A stretch of DNA of 25,293 nt from a virus, in UHGV virus genome UHGV-0110227, one strand, 5' to 3'. The notes under the pieces are model-generated. The model saw only the letters and a program-made list of their open reading frames with translations. It was not told the DNA's origin and did no database searches. Below, piece by piece: positions 1-10,866 of the stretch. Numbering within the stretch: position 1 is the first letter of the stretch; every line of letters starts with the position of its first letter. The position numbers and the translations under genes are program-made.

Positions 1-22
1 TAGTTACGAGCGACATTGCTCC

Positions 23-50
23 GTGTATTCACTCGTTGGAATGAATACAC
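23..50. repeat. Perfect 9-bp inverted repeat GTGTATTCA / TGAATACAC with a 10-nt loop; possible stem-loop or protein-binding palindrome
   Basis: Arms at 23-31 and 42-50 are exact reverse complements. No T-run follows on either strand, so it is not a canonical intrinsic terminator. Confidence 0.5.
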
Positions 51-76
51 AGTGCAGTGTTTATTCTGTTGTTTAT

Positions 77-92
77 GCTAAAAATAAAGGCC
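77..92 (-). repeat. Conserved 3' flank motif GCTAAAAATAAAGGCC just downstream of the leftward gene 110..475 (copy 1 of 2)
   Basis: Near-identical to the motif at 514-530, which sits downstream of the neighbouring leftward gene. Confidence 0.5.
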
Positions 93-109
93 GACTATGC
101 GTCCTGAAA

Positions 110-475
110 TTACTTAACCAATGATGCTGCATATTCGATAAGGTAAAGTTTTGGAGCAAGCCAAATTTTCAGCCAGTCGAAATAATTGAAGAAAACAACA
201 ATAGAAGTAATCGCTATTCCTGATGTGACAAGTAGTGATAAAAGAACAATATCTGCATCATCTCCTTTATTCCATGCAAAAATCATCAGATAAACACACG
301 CTATAATCACCAATACACAGATAGCCTGAATTCCAGCTGATGATACGGCGTGCCACATCAAAAGCTGATGGATGACATCAGGAATCTGTGCCTGGCTAAA
401 TGAAACAGCCGCGTCTATTCCATTGCTGGCTTTTTGCAGTAGTTCTACGAGAATCTTGTTTGCTTGTTCTTCCAT
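110..475 (-). CDS. Hypothetical small membrane protein (121 aa, two predicted transmembrane helices) in the early-left operon
   Basis: ORF with ATG start preceded by AGGTGA. Hydrophobic stretches AGIQAICVLVIIACVYLMIFAW and IVLLSLLVTSGIAITSIVVFF. I recognise no family. Confidence 0.6.
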   Translation of the reverse strand: MEEQANKILVELLQKASNGIDAAVSFSQAQIPDVIHQLLMWHAVSSAGIQAICVLVIIACVYLMIFAWNKGDDADIVLLSLLVTSGIAITSIVVFFNYFDWLKIWLAPKLYLIEYAASLVK

Positions 476-513
476 ATATCACCTTGATTGTAATAAGCAT
501 GAAATTATTTACG

Positions 514-530
514 GCTAAAAAATAAAGGCC
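514..530 (-). repeat. Conserved 3' flank motif GCTAAAAAATAAAGGCC just downstream of the leftward gene 535..786 (copy 2 of 2)
   Basis: Direct repeat of the motif at 77-92, placed immediately 3' of a different gene. Confidence 0.5.
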
Positions 531-534
531 ACCA

Positions 535-786
535 TCAGGCAGCCTTGTTGTAAATGTTGCAGGTATCAAGTAAGTAATTAGATGGAGCGCCATAAATTAT
601 GAATTCATCGTTTGTCGGGTCCATCTCCATCTCTTGGCCTATTGCCATTCTTGCGTCAGTGTCATCAGCGGCGAAGCATAAAACAGCCCACGCACCCATT
701 GTTTTAAAAAGAACTGCAATTGGCTGTGGTTTTACTGAATTTGCGTTAGCGCGAAAATCACAAATCGCACTTTCATGAAATTCCAT
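535..786 (-). CDS. Hypothetical small acidic protein (83 aa) immediately downstream of N, in the position lambda uses for ral
   Basis: ORF with ATG start in the context AGGTGATATATGGAA, identical to the start context of gene 110..475. The N stop codon overlaps this SD. C-terminus ends NKAA, as I recall for lambda Ral, but the rest is unrelated. Confidence 0.6.
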   Translation of the reverse strand: MEFHESAICDFRANANSVKPQPIAVLFKTMGAWAVLCFAADDTDARMAIGQEMEMDPTNDEFIIYGAPSNYLLDTCNIYNKAA

Positions 787-794
787 ATATCACC

Positions 795-1121
795 TCAAAT
801 AAGTGGTTTGCTGCCTAATTTAATTTTCTGGCGACCAACACAAGTCACCCCCATTTCACTGCGTGGCTTGCTGTACCATGTGCGCTGATTCTTGCGCTCA
901 ATACGCTGCAGGTTGCTTTCAATCTGTTCGTGGTATTCAGCCAGCACCGTAAGGTCTATCGGATTCAGTGCGCTTTCTACTCGTGATTTCGGTTTGCGAT
1001 TCAGCGAGAGAATAGGGCGGTTAACTGGCTTTGCGCTTACCCCAACCAACAGGGGATTTGCTGCTTTCCATTGAGCCTGTTTCTCTGCGCGACGTTCGCG
1101 GCGGCGTGCTTGTGCATCCAT
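795..1121 (-). CDS. N: Transcription antitermination protein N (lambda-type)
   Basis: Translation MDAQARRRERRAEKQAQWKAANPLLVGVSAKPVNRPILSLNRKPKSRVESALNPIDLTVLAEYHEQIESNLQRIERKNQRTWYSKP... matches lambda N as I recall it, including the arginine-rich N-terminal motif. AGGAGA SD upstream. nutL and a pL-like promoter lie upstream on the same strand. Confidence 0.93.
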   Translation of the reverse strand: MDAQARRRERRAEKQAQWKAANPLLVGVSAKPVNRPILSLNRKPKSRVESALNPIDLTVLAEYHEQIESNLQRIERKNQRTWYSKPRSEMGVTCVGRQKIKLGSKPLI

Positions 1122-1319
1122 CTGGATTCTCCTGTCAGTTAGCTTTGGTGATTGGATGGCCGGCGCTGAACCCCGGCTTACTGGTTAGAGCGCCCGCACT
1201 ACCAGTGACGCTGTCTTGAGGCGCAGATTGGTTACTGCTTGCCATGAGCGCTGTTTATACATTGGTCGAGCATCAGCCTGCTCATTCATCCAATCCCAAA
1301 GCCTTCTGCTTTGAATGCT

Positions 1320-1350
1320 GCCCTTCTTCAGGGCTAAATTTTTAAGAGCC
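1320..1350 (-). promoter_or_regulatory. nutL site: boxA-like GGCTCTTAA and boxB hairpin GCCCTGAAGAAGGGC (read on minus strand)
   Basis: Minus strand reads GGCTCTTAAAAATTTAGCCCTGAAGAAGGGC. boxB is the lambda nutL boxB sequence; boxA differs from the lambda consensus at one base. Confidence 0.85.
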
Positions 1351-1389
1351 TCACCTTCATGGTGGTCAGTGCGTCCTGCTGATGGCTAG

Positions 1390-1418
1390 ATAATCACAAA
1401 TTGTGTTCGTGCTGTCAA
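1390..1418 (-). promoter_or_regulatory. pL-like leftward early promoter: -35 TTGACA, 17-bp spacer, -10 GATTAT
   Basis: Minus strand reads TTGACA gcacgaacacaatttgt GATTAT. It sits upstream of nutL and N and overlaps operator-like palindromes. Confidence 0.75.
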
Positions 1419-1451
1419 CACGAAATGTGATTGTTTTTATCACAACACGTG
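1395..1451. promoter_or_regulatory. Left operator cluster: three CAC-N5-GTG near-palindromes (1395-1405, 1419-1429, 1441-1451)
   Basis: CACAAATTGTG, CACGAAATGTG and CACAACACGTG with centres spaced 24 and 22 bp, overlapping the pL -10/-35. Same motif class as the right operator cluster. Confidence 0.65.
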
Positions 1452-1490
1452 TTTTCATTGATTTTTAAGGTAATTTAATTTTCTTTGGGC

Positions 1491-1516
1491 AACAAAAAAC
1501 CCGCCGAAGCGGGTTT
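1491..1516 (-). terminator. Intrinsic terminator 24 nt downstream of the repressor gene (stem AAACCCGC / GCGGGTTT, UUCG loop, T6 run)
   Basis: Minus strand reads AAACCCGC-TTCG-GCGGGTTTTTTGTT. Confidence 0.85.
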
Positions 1517-1539
1517 GATGTTTTTAAGTGGCGGGTATA

Positions 1540-2181
1540 TCAGGAGAATTTCATCATCATCTGCACTGCTACGCCGATTATCTTGCAGTTGCCGTCGATT
1601 GGGATCAACGGATAGGCAGGGTTAAGCCCTTTCAGGTATTTGTTACCGCCATCAATGATTAGCTTCTTGAACGTGGCTTCATTAGCATCTGTCAGCTTCG
1701 CAACTACCAGGCTTCCATTAACGGCTTCCTTTCCAGTGTCGAACAGAACCAGCATACCCTCAGGAACGCTAAGGCCGGTAGGAGCTGTCATTGAGTCGCC
1801 CTGAACCCTGAGCCAGAAGGCGTCACCGACAACGTGACAATCTGATTCATACCACTCATCCACTGCCTGAGGGTTGTACGGCTCTACGGCCTCACTCCAT
1901 GCACCTGCGCTAACCCAGCTAATCAACGGAAACTTTTCCCCTGGCTTGTATTGTCCCTGATAGTTGTCGCCAAAAAGCAGTTCTGCCGGAGCGACGCCCA
2001 AAGCTTTAGCTATTACCTCTGCGTCATCAACACTAACGCTTCTGGTTCCTGATTCATAGTTGCCGATCCGAGATTGTGAAGCCCAGCCGCAAAGCTCCGC
2101 CAGAGCCTTCTGTGAAAGCCCTTTATCTTCCCGTAATCGCTTGATACGCGCGGCGATAGTTTCTGTTCTGTTCATGCGCAT
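1540..2181 (-). CDS. cI: CI-type prophage repressor: N-terminal XRE-family HTH plus C-terminal S24 (LexA-like) autopeptidase domain
   Basis: 213 aa. HTH region LSQKALAELCGWASQSRIGNYESG. C-terminal domain PLISWVSAGAWSEAVEPY...VQGDSMTAPTGLSVPEGMLV...ATFKKL resembles the P22 C2 / LexA cleavage domain with a GDSM serine motif. Divergent from the gene to its right across an operator region. Not the lambda cI sequence. Confidence 0.9.
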   Translation of the reverse strand: MRMNRTETIAARIKRLREDKGLSQKALAELCGWASQSRIGNYESGTRSVSVDDAEVIAKALGVAPAELLFGDNYQGQYKPGEKFPLISWVSAGAWSEAVEPYNPQAVDEWYESDCHVVGDAFWLRVQGDSMTAPTGLSVPEGMLVLFDTGKEAVNGSLVVAKLTDANEATFKKLIIDGGNKYLKGLNPAYPLIPIDGNCKIIGVAVQMMMKFS

Positions 2182-2188
2182 TTTATAT

Positions 2189-2246
2189 CACATTCCGTGG
2201 TTTAAGGCTTTACACGATTTGTGTTGACTATCAATCACAATATGTG
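2189..2246. promoter_or_regulatory. Right operator cluster: three CAC-N5-GTG near-palindromes (2189-2199, 2213-2223, 2236-2246) between the repressor gene and cro
   Basis: CACATTCCGTG, CACGATTTGTG and CACAATATGTG with centres spaced 24 and 23 bp, the same tripartite spacing logic as lambda OR3-OR2-OR1. They overlap the pR -35/spacer and the region just upstream of the repressor start. Confidence 0.7.
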
Positions 2247-2252
2247 TTTAAT
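2224..2252 (+). promoter_or_regulatory. pR-like rightward early promoter: -35 TTGACT, 17-bp spacer, -10 TTTAAT (approximate)
   Basis: TTGACT at 2224-2229 and an AT-rich hexamer at 2247-2252, upstream of the cro SD AAGGA and ATG at 2286. Confidence 0.6.
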
Positions 2253-2285
2253 AAAGACTGAGTGAACTAGCTCTTAAGGAAACCT

Positions 2286-2501
2286 ATGAACAACATTGCC
2301 AACGAACGGAAAAAGCTTGGCATCACTCAATCTGCGTTAGCAGGCGCGTGTGGCTGGAACCAGTCCCGCTTAGCTAACTACGAGTCAGGTATCCGGACTC
2401 CAGATTTAGAGTCGTGCCGTCGCCTGGTAAAGGCGCTGAATAAATTGGGGAGCAAGACAACGCTAGATGGCTTGTTCCCGCCGGAACACAAAGCCGCTTA
2501 A
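2286..2501 (+). CDS. cro: Cro-like HTH regulator (71 aa)
   Basis: First gene of the rightward operon. HTH LGITQSALAGACGWNQSRLANYESG is clearly paralogous to the HTH of the adjacent repressor. AAGGA SD. Not the lambda Cro sequence. Confidence 0.8.
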   Translation: MNNIANERKKLGITQSALAGACGWNQSRLANYESGIRTPDLESCRRLVKALNKLGSKTTLDGLFPPEHKAA

Positions 2502-2509
2502 GACATTCC

Positions 2510-2541
2510 CGCTCTTACACATCCCAGCCCTGAAAAAGGGC
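2510..2541 (+). promoter_or_regulatory. nutR site: boxA CGCTCTTAC and boxB hairpin GCCCTGAAAAAGGGC
   Basis: Exact lambda-type boxA at 2510-2518 and boxB at 2527-2541, between cro and cII. Confidence 0.9.
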
Positions 2542-2620
2542 ATCAAATTAAACCACACCTATGGTGTATGCATTTATTTGCATACATTCAATCAATTGTT
2601 ATCTAAGGAAATACTTACAT

Positions 2621-2917
2621 ATGGTTCGTGCAAACAAACGCAACGAGGCTCTAAGAATCGAGAGTGCGTTGCTTAACAAAATCGCAATGCTTGGAACTGA
2701 GAAGACAGCGGAAGCTGTGGGAGTTGATAAGTCGCAGATCAGCAGGTGGAAGAGGGACTGGATTCCAAAGTTCTCAATGCTGCTTGCTGTTCTTGAATGG
2801 GGCGTCGTTGACGACGATATGGCTCGATTGGCACGACAAGTTGCTTCGATTCTCACCAATAAAAAACGCCCGGTGTGCAAGACCGAGCGTTCTGATCAAA
2901 TACAAATGGAATTTTAA
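2621..2917 (+). CDS. cII: Transcriptional activator CII (lambda-type)
   Basis: Translation from ATG 2621 (MVRANKRNEALRIESALLNKIAMLGTEKTAEAVGVDKSQISRWKRDWIPKFSMLLAVLEWGVVDDDMARLARQV...IQMEF, 98 aa) matches lambda CII as I recall it. AAGGA SD upstream. The ORF track starts 60 nt too far upstream at 2561. Confidence 0.93.
   Translation: MVRANKRNEALRIESALLNKIAMLGTEKTAEAVGVDKSQISRWKRDWIPKFSMLLAVLEWGVVDDDMARLARQVASILTNKKRPVCKTERSDQIQMEF
2630..2643 (-). promoter_or_regulatory. CII-binding box TTGC-N6-TTGC of a pRE-like leftward establishment promoter
   Basis: Minus strand reads TTGCGTTTGTTTGC, overlapping the 5' end of cII exactly as in lambda pRE. Confidence 0.8.
2861..2890 (-). terminator. Leftward intrinsic terminator inside the 3' end of cII (oop-type)
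   Basis: Minus strand reads ACGCTCGG-tcttgcaca-CCGGGCGT followed by TTTTTT. Confidence 0.75.
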
Positions 2918-2928
2918 CAACATCCAAC
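2861..2928 (-). ncRNA. OOP-like short antisense RNA overlapping the 3' end of cII
   Basis: Perfect -10 hexamer TATAAT on the minus strand (plus coordinates 2935-2940) about 70 nt upstream of the oop-type terminator, in the arrangement of lambda pO/oop. The -35 is weak (TGGATT). 5' end is inferred. Confidence 0.5.
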
Positions 2929-2939
2929 GAGGTAATTAT

Positions 2940-3212
2940 ATGCGAAACAAAGGCTTTAATCCACCTGATACACACAAAGAAGCTAAGCGTTTGAGCTTCC
3001 TTCGTTCCATTGATGAAAGAACTCAAATCTCTTTTGTGAAAGTTGCCAGAACTGAGCTTCTGAAGGCTGAGGCGAGGGCGTTGATCCCGTCTCTACCAAA
3101 AGAGGAGGGATATACGTTCATTCCAAACGCATTTCTGGAAAAGCTGCTCAAAGAAGACATATCCGTAAGTCAGTTTAACGATGTTCTTAAGGTCTTTCGT
3201 CAAGGCAGGTAG
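2940..3212 (+). CDS. Hypothetical protein (90 aa) between cII and the replication initiator
   Basis: ATG at 2940 with GAGG SD; translation MRNKGFNPPDTHKEAKRLSFLRSIDERTQISFVKVARTELLKAEARALIPSLPKEEGYTF... Stop lies 2 nt before the next gene start. The track ORF 2664..3212 is an out-of-frame upstream extension across cII. No family recognised. Confidence 0.6.
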   Translation: MRNKGFNPPDTHKEAKRLSFLRSIDERTQISFVKVARTELLKAEARALIPSLPKEEGYTFIPNAFLEKLLKEDISVSQFNDVLKVFRQGR

Positions 3213-3214
3213 TT

Positions 3215-4162
3215 ATGAGCAATACAGCAAAAATCTACGATTTCAGCGCCGCACACGAGCGCAGGAGCAACAGGATGGAGAACCAGAAAACTGGTTACAT
3301 TCCGTTGTACCGGAGCATTCTGAAACAGTCATGGGCGAAAGATGTTTATCTTCGCACCCTGTGGGAAAACCTTCTCCTGAATGCCGCCAGAAAGCCATAC
3401 AAAGCGAATTTCAAAGGTCATGAATGGCATCTGCAACCCGGTCAACTGGTTGTGACAGCAGCTGATTTAGGTCTTCAGTTATGCGACAGGCATGGCAAGC
3501 CGGCAAGCCGTGATCAGGTTGAGCGGATGCTTCAGGTTTTTGTGAAAGAGGGGATGATCACCATTGATGGAGAGAAGCAAAAAGGTCGTGTGATCACCAT
3601 CACAAATTACCATGAATATGCTCAAAAAATGGACAATTCACCCGCACATGAAGCCGCACAAACAACCGCACATGATGCCGCACATGATGAAGCCAGTAAT
3701 GGCGCGGCTTTCAGCGTACATTCCGCACATGAAAGCGCACATGAAGCCGCACAAACAACCGCACATCATGAACAAGAAGGTATTAACAAGAATATAAATA
3801 ATACCCCCCTACCCCCCAATGGGGGAGGCGATGGGCAGGTTAAACATGAACGTCGCAAGGCAGAACGAATCGACTACGAATCCTTCCTGAACGCCTACAA
3901 CACCGAAGTCGGTGACAGACTGCCACACGCTGTTGCGGTCAACGAGAAACGCAAACGCCGCCTGAAGAAAATCATCCCGCAACTGAAAACGCCAAACGTG
4001 GACGGTTTCAGGGCGTATGTCAGGGCGTTTGTACATCAGGCCAAGCCGTTTTACTTCGGAGACAACGACACTGGCTGGACGGCAGATTTTGATTACCTGC
4101 TGAGGGAAGATTCGTTAACGGGAGTACGGGAAGGGAAGTTTGCAGACAGGGGGATAGCATGA
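3215..4162 (+). CDS. Replication initiation protein (lambda O / P22 gp18 functional class) with an internal repeat linker
   Basis: 315 aa, sited directly upstream of a DnaB-type helicase gene. Central AH(E/D)A peptide repeats are encoded by DNA iterons. Stop overlaps the helicase start (ATGA). Confidence 0.75.
3642..3825. other. Putative origin of replication inside the initiator gene: eight 12-bp iterons (core CCGCACA) in two clusters, an AT-rich tract, and a G/C hairpin
   Basis: Iterons at 3642, 3654, 3666, 3678 and 3723, 3735, 3747, 3759 on a strict 12-bp register. A 31-bp direct repeat lies at 3643-3673 and 3736-3766. AT-rich 3771-3805. CCCCC-aat-GGGGG hairpin at 3813-3825. Same architecture as lambda ori within O. 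Confidence 0.65.
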
Positions 4163-5535
4163 GACAGGATATCGAAGCGAGCGTTATCGGTGGCCTGCTG
4201 ATTGGTGGATTAACACCAACTGCCAGTGACGTTCTGGCAACGCTGGAGCCGGAAGCGTTTTCAATTCCGCTCTACCGGAAAGCCTTCGAGGTTATCCGCA
4301 AGCAGGCGAGAAACAGAAACCTAATCGACGCGCTGATGGTTGCCGAGGCGTGCGGAGAGGAGCATTTCACGTCAATCCTGATGACCAGTAAGAACTGCCC
4401 GAGTGCCGCAAACCTGAAGGGATATGCCGGAATGGTCGCGGATAACTATCACCGCCGTCTGGTGCTGGAAATCATGGATGAAATGCGTGAACCAATTCAG
4501 AGCGGAACCATCGACGCATCGAGTCAGGCGATGGATGAACTTGTAAAACGTCTCTCAGCCATCAGAAAGCCCCGTGACGAGGTTAAACCTGTACGGTTAG
4601 GGGAAATCATTACTGACTACACTGACACGCTTGACAGGCGTCTGAGGAACGGAGAAGAGTCCGATACCCTGAAGACCGGAATCGAAGAACTTGATGCCAT
4701 CACCGGAGGGATGAACGCGGAAGACCTGGTGATAATCGCTGCTCGTCCTGGTATGGGGAAAACCGAACTGGCGCTGAAGATTGCCGAAGGCGTTGCAAGC
4801 CGCGTTATTCCTGGTTCTGACGTCCGGCGCGGGGTATTGATTTTCTCAATGGAAATGAGCGCATTGCAGATTGCAGAGCGAAGTATTGCCAACGCCGGGA
4901 GGATGTCGGTTAGCGTGCTGCGAAATCCTGCATCGATGGATGACGAAGGCTGGGCGCGCGTTGCTAACGGCATGAGTCAGCTTGCAGATTTGGATGTATG
5001 GGTAGTCGATGCCTCGCGGTTATCGGTCGAAGAAATACGCTCAATCGCAGAACGGCACAAACAGGAAAATCCAAACCTGTCACTCATCATGGCGGATTAT
5101 CTTGGCCTGATTGAGAAGCCGAAAGCAGACCGCAACGACCTCGCAATTGCTCACATCTCCGGAAGCCTGAAGGCGATGGCGAAAGACCTGAAAACGCCCG
5201 TTATCTCCCTGAGTCAGCTTTCGCGCGATGTTGAGAAGCGACCAAACAAACGCCCGACAAACGCAGATTTGCGTGATTCAGGAAGCATTGAACAGGACGC
5301 AGACTCAATCATCATGCTCTATCGGGAAGCGGTATATGACGAGAACAGTAGCGCCGCGCCATTTGCTGAAATCATCGTGACGAAAAACCGTTTTGGCTCA
5401 CTTGGTACGGTTTACCAGCGGTTCTGCAACGGACACTTTGTTGCATGTGACCAGGATGAAGCCAGACATATTTGCACAACATCAAATGCACCTGCTGCGC
5501 GTGGCAGACGATATGCACAAGGGGCTGACGTATGA
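4159..5535 (+). CDS. Replicative DNA helicase, DnaB family (P22 gene 12 type)
   Basis: 458 aa. DnaB-like N-terminal domain and a RecA-fold ATPase domain with Walker [10 protein letters not shown]. Translationally coupled to the initiator gene. Confidence 0.9.
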
Positions 5536-5562
5536 CCATCTACATCACTGAGCTTGTAACAG

Positions 5563-5588
5563 GCCTGCTGGTAATCGCAGGCTTTTTT
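5563..5588 (+). terminator. Intrinsic terminator after the helicase gene (tR2-like position)
   Basis: GCCTGC-tggtaatc-GCAGGC followed by TTTTTT, between the helicase and ninB. Confidence 0.8.
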
Positions 5589-5608
5589 ATTTGGGGGAGA
5601 GGGAAGTC

Positions 5609-6049
5609 ATGAAAAAACTAACCTTTGAAATTCGATCTCCAGCACATCAGCAAAACGCTATTCACGCAGTACAGCAAATCCTTCCAGACCCAACCAAACC
5701 AATCGTAGTAACCATTCAGGAACGCAACCGTAGCTTAGACCAAAACAGGAAGCTATGGGCCTGCTTAGGTGACGTCTCTCGTCAGGTTGAATGGCATGGT
5801 CGCTGGCTGGATGCAGAAAGCTGGAAGTGTGTGTTTACCGCAGCATTAAAGCAGCAGGATGTTGTTCCTAACCTTGCCGGGAATGGCTTTGTGGTAATAG
5901 GCCAGTCAACCAGCAGGATGCGTGTAAGCGAATTTGCGGAGCTATTAGAGCTTATACAGGCATTCGGTACAGAGCGTGGCGTTAAGTGGTCAGACGAAGC
6001 GAGACTGGCTCTGGAGTGGAAAGCGCGATGGGGAGACAGGGCAGCATGA
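5609..6049 (+). CDS. ninB: NinB (Orf-family recombination protein)
   Basis: Translation from ATG 5609 ([76 protein letters not shown]...) matches lambda NinB as I recall it. The track start at 5591 is a TTG 18 nt upstream; a G-rich SD precedes the ATG. Confidence 0.9.
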
Positions 6050-6219
6050 TGCGATGTTATCGGTGCGGTGAATGCAAAGAAGATAACCGCTTCCGACCAA
6101 ATCAACCTTACTGGAATCGATGGTGTCTCCGGTGTGAAAGAACACCAACAGGGGTGTTACCACTACCGCAGGAAAAGGAGGACGTGTGGCGAGACAGCGA
6201 CGAAGTATCACCGACATAA
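6046..6219 (+). CDS. ninD: NinD (small cysteine-rich protein, 57 aa)
   Basis: Internal ATG at 6046 overlaps the ninB stop (ATGA). Translation [37 protein letters not shown]... has CxxC pairs. Length and position match lambda NinD. The track ORF 5986..6219 carries an in-frame N-terminal extension. Confidence 0.75.
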
Positions 6220-6362
6220 TCTGTGAAAACTGCAAATACCTTCCAACGAAACGCACCAGAAATAAACGCAAGCCAATCCCAAAAGAATCTGACGTAAAAA
6301 CCTTCAACTACACTGCTCACCTGTGGGATATCCGGTGGCTAAGACATCGTGCGAGGAAATGA
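6186..6362 (+). CDS. ninE: NinE-like small basic protein (58 aa), GTG start; absent from the ORF track
   Basis: Strong SD AAGGAGG at 6175-6181 followed by GTG at 6186. Translation (M)[57 protein letters not shown]. It overlaps the ninD 3' end in another frame. Identity as NinE is from recall. Confidence 0.6.
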
Positions 6363-6364
6363 CA

Positions 6365-6712
6365 ATGGATTATTCACAGTTAAGTGATTTTGAAATTAAC
6401 AAGCGAGTATTTAAAGCGATAGTAGGGGCAAAACCATTAGGTTATCCGCACAACGCAGATGGACGGTCTGTCGGCAATGAATCAAATGGTAATTATCGAT
6501 GGTACGACTACTGCAATAACCCAGCAGACGCATGGCCTGTAATCGCAAAACATCAGATCAGCATATGTGCATACGAAAGAAATAATCCTGGAATGAAGAA
6601 TGAATATTGGTGGGAGGCGGATAGATTTTGTGAATTTATTACCATAGACAATAACCCACTCCTCGCTGCCATGATTGTCTTTCTCATGATGCAGGACGCC
6701 AATAATGCTTAG
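6365..6712 (+). CDS. Hypothetical protein (115 aa), possibly the NinX of P22-type nin regions
   Basis: ATG at 6365 with SD GAGGAA 6 nt upstream; an alternative ATG lies at 6359. The track start at 6323 is GTG. Trp/Tyr-rich with a hydrophobic C-terminus (LLAAMIVFLMM). The NinX assignment is by position only. Confidence 0.6.
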   Translation: MDYSQLSDFEINKRVFKAIVGAKPLGYPHNADGRSVGNESNGNYRWYDYCNNPADAWPVIAKHQISICAYERNNPGMKNEYWWEADRFCEFITIDNNPLLAAMIVFLMMQDANNA

Positions 6713-6881
6713 CCCATCCCAATCCCTTCAATACCAGAAAGAAAGCGTCGAGCGGGCTTTAACGTGCGCTAACTGCGGTAAGAAGCTGCATGTGCTGGAA
6801 GTTCACGTGTGTGAGCACTGCTGCGCAGAACTGATGAGCGATCCGAATAGCTCAATGTACGAGGAAGAAGACGATGGCTAA
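6705..6881 (+). CDS. ninF: NinF (58 aa); absent from the ORF track
   Basis: ATG at 6705. Translation [58 protein letters not shown] matches lambda NinF as I recall it. Overlaps its neighbours at both ends. Confidence 0.8.
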
Positions 6882-7485
6882 ACCAGCGCGAAGACGATGT
6901 AAAAACGATGAATGTCGGGAATGGTTTCACCCTGCATTCGCTAATCAGTGGTGGTGCTCTCCAGAGTGTGGAACCAAGATAGCACTCGAACGACGAAGTA
7001 AAGAACGCGAAAAAGCGGAAAAAGCAGCAGAGAAGAAACGACGACGAGATGAACAGAAACAGAAAGATAAACTTAAGATTCGAAAACTCGCCTTAAAGCC
7101 CCGCAGTTACTGGATTAAACAAGCCCAACAAGCCGTAAACGCCTTCATCAGAGAAAGAGACCGCGACTTACCATGTATCTCGTGCGGAACGCTCACGTCT
7201 GCTCAGTGGGATGCCGGACATTACCGGACAACTGCTGCGGCACCTCAACTCCGATTTGATGAACGCAATATTCACAAGCAATGCGTGGTGTGCAACCAGC
7301 ACAAAAGCGGAAATCTCGTTCCGTATCGCGTCGAACTGATTAATCGCATTGGGCAGGAAGCAGTAGACGAAATCGAATCAAACCATAACCGCCATCGCTG
7401 GACTGTCGAAGAGTGCAGGGCCATCAAGGCGGAGTATCAGCAGAAACTCAAAGACCTGCGAAACAGCAGAAGTGAGGCCGCATGA
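6874..7485 (+). CDS. ninG: NinG / Rap recombination-associated endonuclease
   Basis: 203 aa. Basic N-terminus with Cys clusters (CKNDEC...[21 protein letters not shown]), as in lambda NinG. Confidence 0.88.
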
Positions 7486-7688
7486 CGTTCTCAGTAAAAA
7501 CCATTCCAGACATGCTCGTTGAAGCATACGGAAACCAGACAGAAGTAGCACGCAGACTGAAATGTAGTCGCGGTACGGTCAGAAAATACGTTGATGATAA
7601 AGACGGGAAAATGCACGCCATCGTCAACGACGTTCTTATGGTTCATCGCGGATGGAGTGAAAGAGATGCGCTATTACGAAAAAATTGA
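7482..7688 (+). CDS. ninH: NinH (small DNA-binding protein, 68 aa)
   Basis: Length and position as lambda NinH. HTH-like segment [20 protein letters not shown]. Confidence 0.8.
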
Positions 7689-8331
7689 TGGCAGCAAATA
7701 CCGAAATATTTGGGTAGTTGGCGATCTGCACGGATGCTACACGAACCTGATGAAAAAACTGGAGACGATAGGATTCGACACCAAAAAAGACCTGCTTATC
7801 TCGGTTGGCGATTTGGTCGATCGCGGTGCAGAGAACGTCGAATGCCTGGAATTAATCACATTCCCTTGGTTCAGAGCTGTACGTGGAAACCATGAGCAAA
7901 TGATGATTGATGGCTTATCAGAGCGTGGAAACGTTAATCACTGGCTGCTTAATGGCGGTGGCTGGTTCTTTAATCTCGATTACGACAAAGAAATTCTGGC
8001 TAAAGCTCTTGCCCATAAAGCAGAAGAACTTCCGTTAATCATCGAACTGGTGAGCAAAGGTAAAAAATATGTCATCTGCCACGCCGATTATCCTTGTGAC
8101 GAATACGAATTTGGAAAGCCAGTTGATCATCAGCAGGTAATCTGGAACCGCGAACGAATCAGCAACTCACAAGACGGGATCGTGAAAGAAATCAAAGGCG
8201 CGGACACGTTCATCTTTGGTCATACGCCAGCAGTGAAACCACTCAAATTTGCCAACCAGATGTATATCGATACCGGCGCAGTGTTCTGCGGAAACCTCAC
8301 ATTGATTCAGGTACAGGGAGAAGGCGCATGA
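7666..8331 (+). CDS. Serine/threonine protein phosphatase (lambda PPase / NinI type, metallophosphoesterase)
   Basis: Translation from ATG 7666 ([29 protein letters not shown]...GDLVDRG...GNHE...) carries the PPP-family motifs GDxHG, GDxxDRG and GNHE. The track start at 7591 is an upstream extension overlapping ninH. Confidence 0.92.
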
Positions 8332-8951
8332 GACTCGAAAGCGTAGCTAAATTTCATTCGCCAAAAAGCCCGATGATGAGCGACTCACCACGGGCTACGG
8401 CTTCTGACTCTCTTTCCGGTACTGATGTGATGGCTGCTATGGGGATGGCGCAATCACAAGCCGGATTCGGAATGGCTGTATTCTGTGGTAAGCACGAACT
8501 CAGCCAGAACGACAAACAAAAGGCTATCAACTATCTGATGCAATTTGCACACAAGGTATCGGGGAAATACCGTGGTGTGGCAAAGCTTGAAGGAAATACT
8601 AAGGCAAAGGTACTGCAAGTGCTCGCAACATTCGCTTATGCGGATTATTGCCGTAGTGCCGCGACGCCGGGCGCAAGATGCAGAGATTGTCACGGTACAG
8701 GCCGTGCGGTTGATATAGCAAAAACAGAGCAGTGGGGGAGAGCTGTTGAGAAAGAGTGCGGAAGATGCAAAGGCGTCGGCTATTCAAGAATGCCTGCAAG
8801 CGCCGCATATCGCGCTGTAACGATGCTAATCCCCAACCTTACTCAACCCACCTGGTCACGCACTGTTAAGCCGCTGTATGACGCTCTGGTGGTGCAATGC
8901 CACAAAGAAGAGTCAATCGCAGACAACATTTTGAATGCGGTCACACGTTAG
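8328..8951 (+). CDS. Q: Late gene antiterminator Q (lambda-type)
   Basis: 207 aa. Translation [48 protein letters not shown]...[12 protein letters not shown]...CGRCKGVGY matches lambda Q including the zinc-binding Cys motifs. A pR'-type promoter follows immediately. Confidence 0.93.
8615..8628 (-). promoter_or_regulatory. CII-binding box TTGC-N6-TTGC inside Q (paQ-like anti-Q promoter)
   Basis: Minus strand reads TTGCGAGCACTTGC. Lambda carries a CII-activated antisense promoter within Q. Confidence 0.55.
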
Positions 8952-8993
8952 CAGCATGATTGCCACGGATGGCAACATATTAACGGCATGATA

Positions 8994-9022
8994 TTGACTT
9001 ATTGAATAAAATTGGGTAAATT
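8994..9022 (+). promoter_or_regulatory. Late promoter pR' (-35 TTGACT, 17-bp spacer, -10 TAAATT), with the overlapping qut region
   Basis: TTGACT at 8994-8999 and TAAATT at 9017-9022, directly downstream of Q. The sequence context is nearly identical to lambda pR' as I recall it. Confidence 0.85.
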
Positions 9023-9028
9023 TGACCC

Positions 9029-9221
9029 AACGATGGGTTAATTCGCTCGTTGTGGTAGTGAGATGAAAAGAGGCGGCGCTTACTACCGATTCCGCCTAGT
9101 TGGCCACTTCGACGTATCGTCTGGAACTCCAACCATCGCAGGCAGAGTGGTCTGCAAAATGCAATCCCGAAACAGTTCGCAGGTAATAGTTAGAGCCTGC
9201 ATAACGGTTTCGGGATTTTTT
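9029..9221 (+). ncRNA. 6S-like late leader RNA (pR' transcript ending at tR' when Q is absent)
   Basis: The distance from the predicted pR' start to the tR' T-run is about 193 nt, the size of the lambda 6S RNA. Track ORFs 9063..9410 (+) and 9083..9391 (-) fall here and are treated as non-coding. Confidence 0.6.
9163..9221 (+). terminator. tR' intrinsic terminator
   Basis: AATCCCGAAAC ... GTTTCGGGATT long hairpin followed by TTTTTT at 9216-9221. Confidence 0.85.
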
Positions 9222-9617
9222 ATATCTGCACAACAGGTAAGAGCATTTGTAGAGTTCGACTCTCTACCGTGGGCTTTTTCCCGCGATGCGAGCCATAAAT
9301 GCTCTTTCCGTTGTGCTGAATTAAGCGAATGCCGGAAGCAGAACCGGATTACCAAATGCGTACAGGCGTCATCGCCGCCCAGCAACAGCACAACCCAAAC
9401 TGAGCCGTAGCCACTGGCTATCCTGAATTCATCAGTGATAGTTATGCTGCGGCTTTCTACACATGACCTTCGTGAAAGCGGTGGCAGGAGGTTGCGCTAA
9501 CAACCTCATGCCGTTTTGCCCGTGCATATCGGTCACGAACAAATCTGATTACTAAACACAGTAGCCTGGATTTGTTCTATCAGTAATCGACCTTATTCCT
9601 AATTAAATAGAGCAAAT

Positions 9618-9631
9618 CCCCTTATTGGGGG
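9618..9631 (+). promoter_or_regulatory. sdi-like stem-loop just upstream of the holin dual start
   Basis: CCCC-ttatt-GGGG hairpin immediately 5' of the Met1-Lys2-Met3 start at 9638 and 9644, as in lambda S translational control. Confidence 0.6.
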
Positions 9632-9637
9632 TAAGAC

Positions 9638-9961
9638 ATGAAGATGCCAGAAAAAAATGACCTGTTAGCCGCCATTCTCGCGGCAAAGGAACAAGGCATC
9701 GGGGCAATCCTTGCGTTTGCAATGGCGTACCTTCGCGGCAGATATAATGGCGGTGCGTTTACAAAAACAGTAATCGACGCAACGATGTGCGCCATTATCG
9801 CCTGGTTCATTCGTGACCTTCTCGACTTCGCCGGACTAAGTAGCAATCTCGCTTATATAACGAGCGTGTTCATCGGCTACATCGGTACTGACTCGATTGG
9901 TTCGCTTATCAAACGCTTCGCTGCTAAAAAAGCCGGAGTAGAAGATGGTGGAAATCAATAA
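9638..9961 (+). CDS. S: Holin S (class I, dual-start; the Met3 start at 9644 gives the S105-type holin)
   Basis: 107 aa. Translation [83 protein letters not shown]... matches lambda S; three transmembrane segments. Confidence 0.95.
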
Positions 9962-10421
9962 TCAACGTAAGGCGTTCCTCGATATGCTGGCGTGGTCAGA
10001 GGGAACTGATAACGGACGGCAGAAAACCAGAAATCATGGTTATGACGTCATTGTTGGCGGAGAGCTATTTACTGATTACTCCGATCACCCTCGCAAACTT
10101 GTCACGCTAAACCCCAAACTCAAATCAACAGCCGCCGGACGTTACCAGCTTCTTTCCCGTTGGTGGGATGCCTATCGTAAGCAGCTTGGCCTGAAAGACT
10201 TCTCTCCCAAAAGCCAGGACGCTGTTGCGCTGCAGCAGATTAAGGAACGTGGCGCTTTGCCGATGATTGATCGCGGTGATATCCGTCAGGCAATCGACCG
10301 TTGCAGCAATATTTGGGCTTCATTGCCCGGTGCTGGCTACGGTCAGTATGAACACAAGATCGATAGTCTGATTGCCAAATTCAAAGAAGCTGGCGGGGTG
10401 GTTAATGAAACTTCGCTATAA
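9945..10421 (+). CDS. R: Endolysin R (lytic transglycosylase, lambda-type)
   Basis: 158 aa. Translation [57 protein letters not shown]... matches lambda R. Start overlaps the S 3' end. Confidence 0.95.
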
Positions 10422-10866
10422 GCTGGTTATTTCTGCTTTCCTCCTGACTTTATTCGGTTATCTCGTCTGGTCAGCTAATCATTACCACAATAAAGCCATT
10501 GAATACAAAAAACAGCGCGACGAAAACGCTATGGCATTAGATTCGGCTATGGCGACGATCTCTGATATGCAGAAGCGTCAACGTGACGTAGCAGAACTCG
10601 ATGCCAGATATACAAAGGAGCTTGCTGATGCTAACGCGACTATCGAAAGTCTCCGTGCTGATGTTTCTGCTGGGCGTAAGCGCCTGCAAGTCGCCGCCAC
10701 CTGTGCAAAGTCAACGACCGGAGCCAGCGGCATGGGCGATGGAGAAAGCCCAGGACTTACAGCAGATGCTGAACTCAATTATTACCGTCTCCGAAGTGGA
10801 ATCGACAAGATAACCGCACAGGTCAACTACCTGCAGGAATACATCAGGGCGCAATGCCTGAAATAA
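10405..10866 (+). CDS. Rz: Rz i-spanin (inner-membrane spanin subunit)
   Basis: ATG at 10405 gives 153 aa with an N-terminal transmembrane helix (LVISAFLLTLFGYLVW) and a coiled-coil periplasmic domain. The C-terminal two thirds resemble lambda Rz; the N-terminus is divergent. The track start at 10372 is an upstream extension. Confidence 0.85.
   Translation: MKLRYKLVISAFLLTLFGYLVWSANHYHNKAIEYKKQRDENAMALDSAMATISDMQKRQRDVAELDARYTKELADANATIESLRADVSAGRKRLQVAATCAKSTTGASGMGDGESPGLTADAELNYYRLRSGIDKITAQVNYLQEYIRAQCLK
10628..10813 (+). CDS. Rz1: Rz1 o-spanin lipoprotein, embedded in the +1 frame of Rz
   Basis: AAGGAG SD at 10615-10620 then ATG at 10628. Translation MLTRLSKVSVLMFLLGVSAC... has a lipobox-like VSAC, followed by a proline-rich mature region (KSPPPVQSQRPEP). 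61 aa. Confidence 0.8.
   Translation: MLTRLSKVSVLMFLLGVSACKSPPPVQSQRPEPAAWAMEKAQDLQQMLNSIITVSEVESTR

Follow-up and report, generated by a model that had tools for sequence, protein, structure and literature searches.

Positions 1,390 to 2,501 of the virus genome UHGV-0110227 (a stretch of 25,293 nucleotides, hereafter the window) had been read as an immunity region of non-lambda specificity, which raises the question of whether this locus encodes a new repressor-operator system or one that is already known. Our analysis revealed that the cassette at about 1385-2507 is an ordinary lambda-style lysis/lysogeny switch, composed of a repressor, a Cro protein and six operators. Very probably, the whole of an mEp213-type lambdoid immunity cassette lies at 1385-2507, flanked by lambda-type N/nutL and nutR/cII within a P22-like (CUS-3/Sf101-like) prophage; it would function by analogy with lambda and 434.

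The two regulatory genes are divergent:

1540..2181, minus strand: cI repressor, 213 aa from the ATG at 2181, or 211 aa from the ATG at 2175, the putative start for a leaderless pRM transcript.
2286..2501, plus strand: Cro, 71 aa, an all-alpha HTH_3 protein whose recognition helix begins with Q26-S27-R28.

Database annotation places the cI start at the upstream ATG (213 aa), and both helix-turn-helix strings quoted in the sequence-only reading are present in these two ORFs. Pfam identified an N-terminal HTH_3 domain (PF01381, E=3e-14) and a LexA-like C-terminal Peptidase_S24 domain (PF00717, E=3e-25) in cI, which aligns to lambda cI (3bdn) with E=5e-27. Its recognition helix begins with S33-Q34-S35-R36. 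An Ala90-Gly91 cleavage motif, Ser128, and Lys170/171 in TFKKL complete the repressor architecture; A90-G91, S128 and TFKKL align to A111-G112, S149 and K192 of lambda cI. The C-terminal domain is 68.5% identical to that of 434, 67.9% to HK620, 63.4% to P22 C2 and 40% to lambda, values that place it in the 434/HK620/P22 group. Its earlier description as P22 C2-like holds for the group but not for the closest member, P22 C2 ranking third. The N-terminal domain is 37% identical to that of lambda, 36% to 434 and 29% to P22.

Cro was assigned by Pfam to HTH_3 (E=1.3e-12, 48 bits, the cutoff being 23), and no model outside the HTH family was reported at E<=0.01. BLASTP against its own repressor gave 21/45 identities (E=8e-12, about 47% to the cI DNA-binding domain), while 434 Cro and 434 cI share 33/63. 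The AF2 model comprises five helices (pLDDT 80), and its best Foldseek match was 28tn (TM 0.82), followed by matches that included the N-terminal domains of P22 c2 and lambda cI, and Xfaso1 Cro; lambda Cro was absent among the top 50 matches, and direct comparison with it gave no meaningful alignment. Cro belongs to the all-alpha, repressor-like HTH_3 class of 434 and P22 and not to the alpha+beta class of lambda. The homology to the repressor and the 434-like arrangement previously proposed for Cro are borne out by its 47.7% identity to the cI N-terminal domain and by the repressor-type folds matched by the all-alpha model.

As in other lambdoid regions, the spacer of about 100 bp between cI (1540-2181, minus strand) and cro (2286-2501, plus strand) carries OR3, OR2 and OR1 over pR and pRM, and a second operator cluster overlaps pL (1418-1390), with lambda-type nutL and N to its left. 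The operators, given without strand, are the following:

1392..1408: OL1, AATCACAAATTGTGTTC, between the pL -35 and -10 boxes, its central 5 bp all A/T.
1416..1432: OL2, CAACACGAAATGTGATT, overlapping the pL -35 box and colinear with lambda OL2, CAACACCGCCAGAGATA.
1438..1454: OL3, TATCACAACACGTGTTT.
2186..2202: OR3, TATCACATTCCGTGGTT.
2210..2226: OR2, TTACACGATTTGTGTTG, its last 3 bp forming the start of the pR -35 box, as in lambda; centre at -43 from the putative pRM start.
2233..2249: OR1, AATCACAATATGTGTTT, between the pR -35 and -10 boxes.

The two triplets (OL 1392-1454, OR 2186-2249) flank the leftward repressor gene and overlap pL and pR. Exact CAC-N5-GTG matches lie at 1395-1405, 1419-1429, 1441-1451, 2189-2199, 2213-2223 and 2236-2246, with centres at 1400/1424/1446 (OL) and 2194/2218/2241 (OR) and spacings of 24/22 and 24/23 bp, so that all six sites listed in the sequence-only reading were recovered exactly as given. 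From -7 to -2, the half-sites carry A (11/12), W (11/12), C, A, C and R (12/12). Chris1 and pAEv1818 have a further, fourth OR site downstream of pR; none was found here at up to one mismatch.

Promoters and a terminator complete the cassette:

1390..1418, minus strand: pL promoter, -35 TTGACA (1418-1413), 17-bp spacer, -10 GATTAT (1395-1390), with a TG before the -10 box.
2224..2252, plus strand: pR promoter, read from sequence, -35 TTGACT (2224-2229), 17-bp spacer, -10 TTTAAT (2247-2252).
2182..2187, minus strand: putative pRM -10 box TATAAA, from sequence and the geometry shared with lambda.
1487..1516, minus strand: intrinsic terminator of the cI (pRM/pRE) transcript, stem 1516-1497 followed by a T-run.

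The pL promoter scored 10/12 matches in a promoter scan, and its -35 box aligns without gaps to that of lambda pL. The pR -35 box is identical to, and aligned with, that of lambda pR; pR was absent from a strict promoter scan. The putative pRM -10 box overlaps the last 2 bp of OR3, as does the lambda pRM -10 box, and would put +1 at A2175, in the second ATG; there is no good -35 box (AAGCCT, essentially without a match). By analogy with lambda, transcription from pRM probably starts at A2175 and yields a leaderless cI message. The terminator consists of an 8-pair stem (1497-1516), a GNRA-like loop and a minus-strand T-run, with an RNA fold of -16.8 kcal/mol (z=-2.8). No ORF was found between it and OL3, in agreement with the strong terminator directly after the repressor gene, and the lack of a rex-like passenger, noted previously.

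The cassette is not new, because the sequenced coliphage mEp213 (records JQ182733, NC_019720 and PV340538) has an essentially identical immunity region. Its DNA is 99.8-100% identical to the immunity regions of mEp213 and CurroJimenez_Bas106 (99.8-99.9% across 1261 bp) and 98.6% identical to that of ECP1; among 5,426 complete E. coli genomes, 14 carry the entire cassette, with 100% identity in E. coli chromosomes. The first 75 residues of cI, its N-terminal domain, are 100% identical to those of mEp213 cI, and all six operators are identical in the alignment with mEp213 (99.8% DNA identity); both cI and Cro are 100% identical to their CurroJimenez counterparts. Cro, both promoters and the terminator are likewise identical to those of mEp213. 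In ECP1, substitutions within the operators affect central bases or outer flanks and never CAC or GTG. The surrounding genomes differ, mEp213 being a siphovirus, ECP1 HK97-like, and the window a podovirus mosaic resembling P22/CUS-3, in which the early and late regulatory genes are lambda-type. The immunity cassette has moved as a module.

On record, mEp213 forms lysogens and defines an immunity group of its own (PMC3442831), and the cassette therefore belongs to a named type. This mEp213-type cassette is genuine and already known, since several phages that carry it have deposited sequences in which cI and Cro are annotated. Its operators appear biochemically uncharacterised in the literature searched: for the operators of mEp213, mEpX1, CurroJimenez and H-19B, the search retrieved neither molecular work on this repressor and its operators nor any binding, footprint or transcript data for the mEp213-type cassette. 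CurroJimenez, which carries the same cassette, forms clear plaques on K-12, for which its authors suggest a missing attB; a weakly functioning switch could be an alternative explanation. As a textbook lambdoid genetic switch, the region has little value as a discovery. It can nevertheless be annotated precisely, with its operators, pL, pR, probable leaderless pRM start, terminator and junctions.

The same motif recurs, about 23-24 bp (or double) apart, in the cI-cro spacers of phages whose cI N-terminal domains are 57-68% identical (mEpX1, Chris1, GF-2, pAEv1818 and S107). The related repressors (those of mEpX1 and VT1-Sakai, which are identical, and of Chris1, GF-2 and S107) carry the same operator type. 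For the DNA-binding parts, the nearest named relative is mEpX1/VT1-Sakai (Stx1 prophage Sp15), with 64% identity for the N-terminal domain and 58% for Cro. It has three OR sites of the CAC-N5-GTG type, and the VT1-Sakai record, whose sites are identical to those of mEpX1, labels them 'putative operator'. With mEpX1/VT1-Sakai OR1 (AATCACAAATTGTGTGT) differing from OL1 at only 2 of 17 positions, and given these protein identities, partial cross-talk might be envisaged, in which the two repressors bind some of each other's operators without conferring full immunity. We consider this unlikely: mEp213 is listed in an immunity group apart from that of mEpX1 (PMC3442831), and the recognition helix, S-Q-S-R here, reads A-P-S-R in mEpX1 cI, a difference that involves a probable contact residue. 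In addition, the C-terminal domains are of different types, that of mEpX1 being lambda-like (44% identical to the cI described here), and heteromeric cooperativity is therefore unlikely. Operators of this family were reportedly footprinted in the Stx1 phage H-19B by Shi and Friedman (2001). This lead was rejected: in the H-19B sequence (AF034975), cI, Cro and OR proved unrelated and contained no CAC-N5-GTG sites.

A new and uncharacterised immunity specificity, with operators unrelated to those of lambda, is very improbable. In its favour, the cI and Cro DNA-binding domains are only distantly related to those of lambda, 434 and P22 (29-37% identity), and no paper on the operators was found in the literature searched. 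However, the cassette is identical to those of mEp213, CurroJimenez and ECP1, and mEp213 already stands as its own immunity group (PMC3442831); the operator frame and outer half-site are common to lambda, and the same type is annotated in VT1-Sakai. As to novelty, this proposal is already largely refuted. The sequence-only reading had itself named, as grounds for refutation, a repressor/Cro pair identical to a well-characterised type, and essentially such a pair was found in mEp213 (99.8-100%), a type that is named, not biochemically characterised.

Comparison with 434 and P22 situates the mEp213-type cassette further. Like 434, it has a Cro that is a paralogue-type copy of the repressor DNA-binding domain, and a cI C-terminal domain 68.5% identical to the 434 one. 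It differs by an N-terminal domain only 36% identical, by the absence from OL and OR of the 14-bp ACAA-N6-TTGT operators, and by the absence of a gene downstream of cI, which 434 possesses; only the C-terminal domain is 434-like. From the 434 literature, the AT-rich central bases of the operators likely matter. With P22 it shares a 63% identical C-terminal domain, an all-alpha Cro and a compact layout in which c2 abuts OL without a passenger gene, whereas the N-terminal domain is 29% identical. P22 operators are a different 18-bp sequence.

The relationship with lambda is closer at the operators than at the proteins. With at most one mismatch, CAC-N5-GTG also describes each of the six lambda operators, which lie at the same offsets from pL and pR; OL1 and OL2 align without gaps to lambda OL1 and OL2. 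The two phages have in common the general layout, the A-T/A-C-A-C outer half-site, the placement of sites 1 and 2 relative to the pL and pR -35 boxes, the relation of OR3 to the pRM -10 box and the leaderless ATG, the Gln-Ser start of the recognition helix, and a cI made of HTH and S24 domains. The inner operator bases differ, being AT-rich here instead of CCGC, with R-W at positions -2/-1 instead of the C-G of the lambda half-site TATCACCGC; cI is 37% identical, and Cro belongs to a different fold class and is unalignable. The cassette has no rexAB, and its cI no long N-terminal arm; the OL-OR distance is therefore about 0.75-0.85 kb, compared with 2.3 kb in lambda. The non-lambda specificity initially read for this region thus stands for the repressor and Cro (cI 37% identical to lambda cI) and holds only in part for the operators: both clusters had been called non-lambda, but only their inner bases depart from the common frame and outer half-site.

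Functional cross-immunity with lambda through the common ATCAC/CAC-N5-GTG frame, with lambda cI repressing the cassette or the reverse, would agree with the fit of the lambda operators, the colinearity of OL1 and OL2 and the shared Gln-Ser helix start. It is even less probable than a new specificity, since lambda and mEp213 are heteroimmune, belong to different immunity groups and have been combined in stable double and triple lysogens (PMC3442831), and since the inner half-sites (R-W versus C-G), the missing N-terminal arm and the 37% identity of the N-terminal domain set the repressors apart. Conceivably, though less likely than not, the repressors of lambda and of mEp213, mEpX1 (VT1-Sakai), Chris1 and GF-2 are variants that differ in specificity around one common operator frame. 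A conserved Gln-Ser at the start of the recognition helix would then read the outer half-site A-W-C-A-C in cI and Cro, and heteroimmunity would reside almost wholly in the central 5-7 bp, GC-rich and contacted by the N-terminal arm in lambda, AT-rich and read indirectly in the mEp213-type cassette. If true, this would provide a natural series for how new immunities arise without moved operators or promoters, and would leave room for partial cross-talk with the Stx1 prophage repressor of O157:H7 Sakai. With operators that keep the lambda frame and outer half-site yet confer a different immunity, mEp213-type phages could be a convenient comparison for studies of repressor specificity.

A chance origin of the six palindromes, or a mere association with the promoters without protein binding, can practically be dismissed: although the bare motif count over the whole window is only modestly above expectation and not striking (11 versus 6.4 expected, reached in 7/100 shuffles), three sites within 60 bp occurred in 0/3000 mononucleotide shuffles while the window carries two such clusters, and the sites are placed like lambda operators relative to pL, pR and pRM and are kept in divergent relatives with differing surroundings.

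For the mEp213-type switch, analogy with lambda and 434 leads us to infer binding, affinity order, cooperativity, pRM activation, pRM start and the reading of the outer half-site by Gln-Ser. In the lysogen, cI dimers would bind the 17-bp operators through the half-site A-W-C-A-C-R, and the 434/P22-like C-terminal domain would allow cooperative binding of dimers at sites 1 and 2 of OR and OL, shutting off pR and pL. A weak pRM, apparently starting at the A of the second ATG, would be activated by the dimer at OR2 (centre at -43) and would yield a leaderless cI message ending at the hairpin 1516-1497. OR3 and OL3, with the least AT-rich centres, are probably the weakest repressor sites, an order of affinity that central AT content would dictate as in 434. 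Upon SOS induction, activated RecA would promote self-cleavage at Ala90-Gly91 by the Ser128/Lys dyad; pR would then produce Cro, which would read the same sites and turn pRM off.

The cassette is bordered by lambda-type sequences:

1295..1384, minus strand: lambda-type start of the pL transcript and nutL, with the boxB hairpin 1320-1334 (GCCCTTCTTCAGGGC); 97.8% identical by blastn to lambda 35494-35583.
2508..2917, plus strand: lambda-type right flank, with nutR boxB 2527-2541, the tR1 region and cII (2621-2917); 96% identical by blastn to lambda 38247-38649.
2630-2643, minus strand: pRE cII-binding box TTGC-N6-TTGC, within the right flank.

The left junction, at about 1384/1385, matches the putative pL +1 at about 1383, and homology to ECP1 starts near 1372. 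The lambda type earlier assigned to N, nutL, nutR, cII, Q and the lysis genes was confirmed by blastn identities of 93-98% to lambda for N, nutL, nutR/cII, nin, Q, S, R and Rz. The flanking lambda-type cII/pRE would provide the establishment transcription of cI. A search of window positions 1-5000 against Rfam at gathering thresholds gave no matches. The terminator hairpin of the cI transcript also has a T-run on the plus strand.

The switch lies in lambda-type surroundings, as the sequence-only reading had held: blastn gave 93-98% identity in N, nutL, nutR/tR1/cII, nin, Q, S, R and Rz, which therefore delimits a non-lambda cassette at about 1385-2507. The flanking features are:

820-1150: match to lambda N, 93% (blastn)
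1295-1384: match to lambda nutL and the start of the pL transcript, 97.8% (blastn)
2508-2913: match to lambda nutR, tR1 and cII, 96% (blastn)
5532-10677: match to lambda nin, Q, S, R and Rz, 94-98% (blastn)
2630-2643, minus strand: cII box of pRE, TTGC-N6-TTGC

The interval from the N start codon to nutL (1151-1294) gave no blastn match to lambda, though both neighbours match. The left junction falls at the inferred pL start, and the junctions drawn against lambda (1384/1385 and 2507/2508) and against phage ECP1 (~1372 and ~2498) lie within about 15 bp of each other. The cassette itself contains:

1540-2181, minus strand: cI repressor ORF, Pfam HTH_3 (E=3e-14) and Peptidase_S24 (E=3e-25)
2286-2501, plus strand: Cro ORF, 71 aa, Pfam HTH_3 (E=1.3e-12)
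1395-1405, 1419-1429 and 1441-1451: CAC-N5-GTG cores of the left operators (OL), exact matches
2189-2199, 2213-2223 and 2236-2246: CAC-N5-GTG cores of the right operators (OR), exact matches
1418-1390, minus strand: pL, TTGACA-17-GATTAT
2224-2229: -35 of pR, TTGACT (the same as lambda's), with TTTAAT 17 bp downstream
1516-1497: terminator, an 8-bp GC-rich hairpin followed by a T run, 24 bases past the cI stop codon

All six CAC-N5-GTG sites were recovered at the exact positions originally proposed, in two clusters with centres spaced by 24 and 22 bp (OL) and 24 and 23 bp (OR). The whole-window tally of the bare motif is unremarkable (11 matches against 6.4 expected, a count reached in 7 of 100 shuffles); what stands out is the arrangement, since three matches within 60 bp never occurred in 3000 shuffles and the window holds two such triplets. 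A seventh, isolated match, CACTACCAGTG, lies at 1197-1207, inside 1151-1294. The twelve aligned half-sites gave the consensus A(11/12)-W(11/12)-C-A-C-R(12/12)-W, and most of the six sites pair an ATCAC half with an AACAC half. Among the central five bases, the number of A/T declines identically in both clusters, from 5 to 4 to 3 for sites 1, 2 and 3.

The promoters are interleaved with these sites. OL1 lies between the pL hexamers and OL2 overlaps the pL -35; likewise, OR1 lies between the pR hexamers, and the last three bases of OR2 form part of the pR -35. Past OR3, the minus strand reads TATAAA-ATGCGC-ATG, the same geometry as TAGATT-TAACGT-ATG in lambda, so that a pRM with its -10 at 2187-2182 would start at A2175, the first base of the second ATG. 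The cI message from this putative promoter would be leaderless and encode a repressor of 211 aa, and the OR2 centre would stand at -43 from the start, compared with -42 in lambda. The pRM -35 region, AAGCCT, is a very poor match, which fits an activator-dependent promoter. Downstream of cI, the terminator folds at -16.8 kcal/mol (z=-2.8); since no ORF was found between it and OL3, the proposed lack of rex-like passenger genes is correct. The T-rich tail of the hairpin (1497-1516) is present on both strands, and the hairpin could also halt rightward transcription running antisense into the cI gene.

The cassette is already known. A megablast search of phage genomes with 1300-2560 recovered the entire segment from three named phages. 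Identity is 99.9% in CurroJimenez_Bas106 (PQ850599, 28106-29366; one base different in 1261 bp), 99.8% in mEp213 (three records, one with cI and Cro annotated), and 98.6% over 90% of the stretch in ECP1. Full-length cI and Cro are both 100% identical to those of CurroJimenez, and the cI N-terminal domain is 100% identical in mEp213 and CurroJimenez. The possibility that the repressor/Cro pair would prove identical to a well-characterised immunity type, raised in the sequence-only reading as counting against it, is thus essentially realised, because the sequence is already in GenBank under the name of mEp213, a phage that has an immunity group to itself; "well-characterised" refers here to existence and naming rather than biochemistry, and the literature searched yielded no biochemical work on the mEp213-type repressor or operators. 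The original observations were correct and were described well; the system itself, however, is a lambdoid switch of the textbook kind. A passage of PMC3442831, citing Kameyama et al. 1999, reports lambda/mEp213/mEp235 triple lysogens. According to the BASEL paper, CurroJimenez plaques are clear on K-12 though the lysogeny genes are apparently intact, for which its authors suggest a missing attB.

The cassette is also present at full length in 14 of 5,426 complete E. coli genomes, in some at 100% identity, where its genes carry just the labels "LexA family protein" and "helix-turn-helix transcriptional regulator". The genome types around it differ: a siphovirus for mEp213, an HK97-like phage for ECP1 and, for the window, a P22-like mosaic (best whole-window matches CUS-3, Sf101 and Kapi1). 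The cassette has therefore moved as a module. In the ECP1 record (locus L004, 770-1156), only a 387-nt 'hypothetical protein' is annotated, but by the alignment the cI ORF there is intact and carries three substitutions, among them a Ser21-to-Thr change where helix 2 begins; the locus seems to be under-annotated rather than the repressor truncated.

Phages with related N-terminal domains, namely mEpX1 (E. coli), Chris1 (Citrobacter), GF-2 (Edwardsiella), pAEv1818 (Aeromonas) and S107 (Salmonella), all carry CAC-N5-GTG, exact or with one mismatch, in the cI-cro spacer, at spacings of ~23-24 bp or twice that and within neighbouring sequence that varies between phages. mEpX1 and the Stx1 prophage VT1-Sakai are identical in cI, Cro and OR (1378-1494 in both loci, L002 and L016), and the VT1-Sakai GenBank record labels the same three 17-mers "putative operator". 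ECP1 differs from the window at an OL1 flank base and at one central base each of OL3 and OR1, never in the CAC/GTG triplets. These observations lend independent support to the CAC-N5-GTG sites as operators. The OR1 of mEpX1/VT1-Sakai differs from the window OL1 at 2 of 17 positions, and the recognition helix reads A-P-S-R in mEpX1 versus S-Q-S-R in the window; mEpX1 and mEp213 are listed as separate immunity groups (PMC3442831).

The claim that the operator clusters are not lambda-type stands for the inner bases, which differ, but not for the motif, since CAC-N5-GTG also describes every one of the six lambda operators, with no or one mismatch. In an ungapped alignment anchored on the common pL -35, lambda OL1 (TATCACCGCCAGTGGTA) falls on the window OL1 (AATCACAAATTGTGTTC) and lambda OL2 (CAACACCGCCAGAGATA) on the window OL2 (CAACACGAAATGTGATT); offsets of the OR sites in the cI-cro spacer are 14, 37 and 61 in lambda and 14, 38 and 61 here. 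HMMER aligned cI S33-Q34-S35-R36 to lambda G43-Q44-S45-G46. It is established from structural work that positions 2 and 4 of TATCAC are contacted in lambda by Gln44 and Ser45. From the operator and recognition-helix alignments, we infer that the outer half-site would be read as in lambda, specificity residing in the inner bases. These are C-G-C in lambda and partly contacted by an N-terminal arm that is missing in the window cI; here they are A/T-rich, which suggests a 434-like indirect readout. It is mildly interesting that the operators hold lambda's frame and outer half-site and immunity is nonetheless different.

The proposed homology between Cro and the repressor DNA-binding domain was confirmed by BLASTP (21/45 identities, E=8e-12; 33/63 for 434 Cro and its own cI). 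Cro scored 104 against its own cI and 49-57 against the 434, P22, HK620 and lambda repressors; mEpX1 Cro (58%) and Chris1 Cro (57%) are the true orthologues, and the motif G-W-x-Q-S-R-(I/L)-x-N-Y-E is common to the compared cI/Cro proteins. A single-sequence AlphaFold model of Cro (pLDDT 80) has five helices and is closest to PDB 28tn, an E. coli "lambda repressor-like protein" (TM 0.82, 38% identity). Its other matches include the N-terminal domains of P22 c2 and lambda cI as well as Xfaso1 Cro, which is all-alpha; lambda Cro was absent among the top 50 structural matches. The 28tn entry, released 2026-03-11, looks like the Cro of a related prophage; no accompanying description was found.

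Over its entire length the repressor can be aligned with the complete lambda repressor 3bdn (E=5e-27), including the Ala-Gly cleavage site A90-G91, the catalytic Ser S128 and the TFKKL lysine K170/171 (numbered from the second ATG). Its C-terminal domain, described as P22 C2-like, does share 63.4% identity with P22 C2 but is closer to 434 (68.5%) and HK620 (67.9%); identity to lambda is 39.8%. The nearest N-terminal domains are those of Chris1 (67.6%) and mEpX1 (64.2%), the latter repressor ending in a lambda-like S24 domain. The Chris1 (L003, 1501-1881) and pAEv1818 (L012, 1198-1578) repressors are 126 aa long, with N-terminal domains 60-68% identical and a short helical, non-peptidase tail replacing the S24 peptidase domain. 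Because the C-termini of these relatives differ, one DNA-binding module is joined to at least three different C-terminal domains, and the mEp213-type repressor is, by sequence comparison, a domain mosaic.

The regulatory region is bordered by three small ORFs, a pair to the left of N and a single one separating cII from an O-like replication gene (3215-4162):

110-475, minus strand: a 121-aa hydrophobic protein, match to phrog_3054
535-786, minus strand: match to phrog_2471
2940-3212, plus strand: match to phrog_2519

The O-like gene contains 12-bp iterons (CCGCACATGAAG, CCGCACAAACAA, CCGCACATGATG and similar) in two blocks of four, at 3642-3691 and 3723-3772, which probably form the replication origin and also code for a repetitive peptide segment of the O-like protein.
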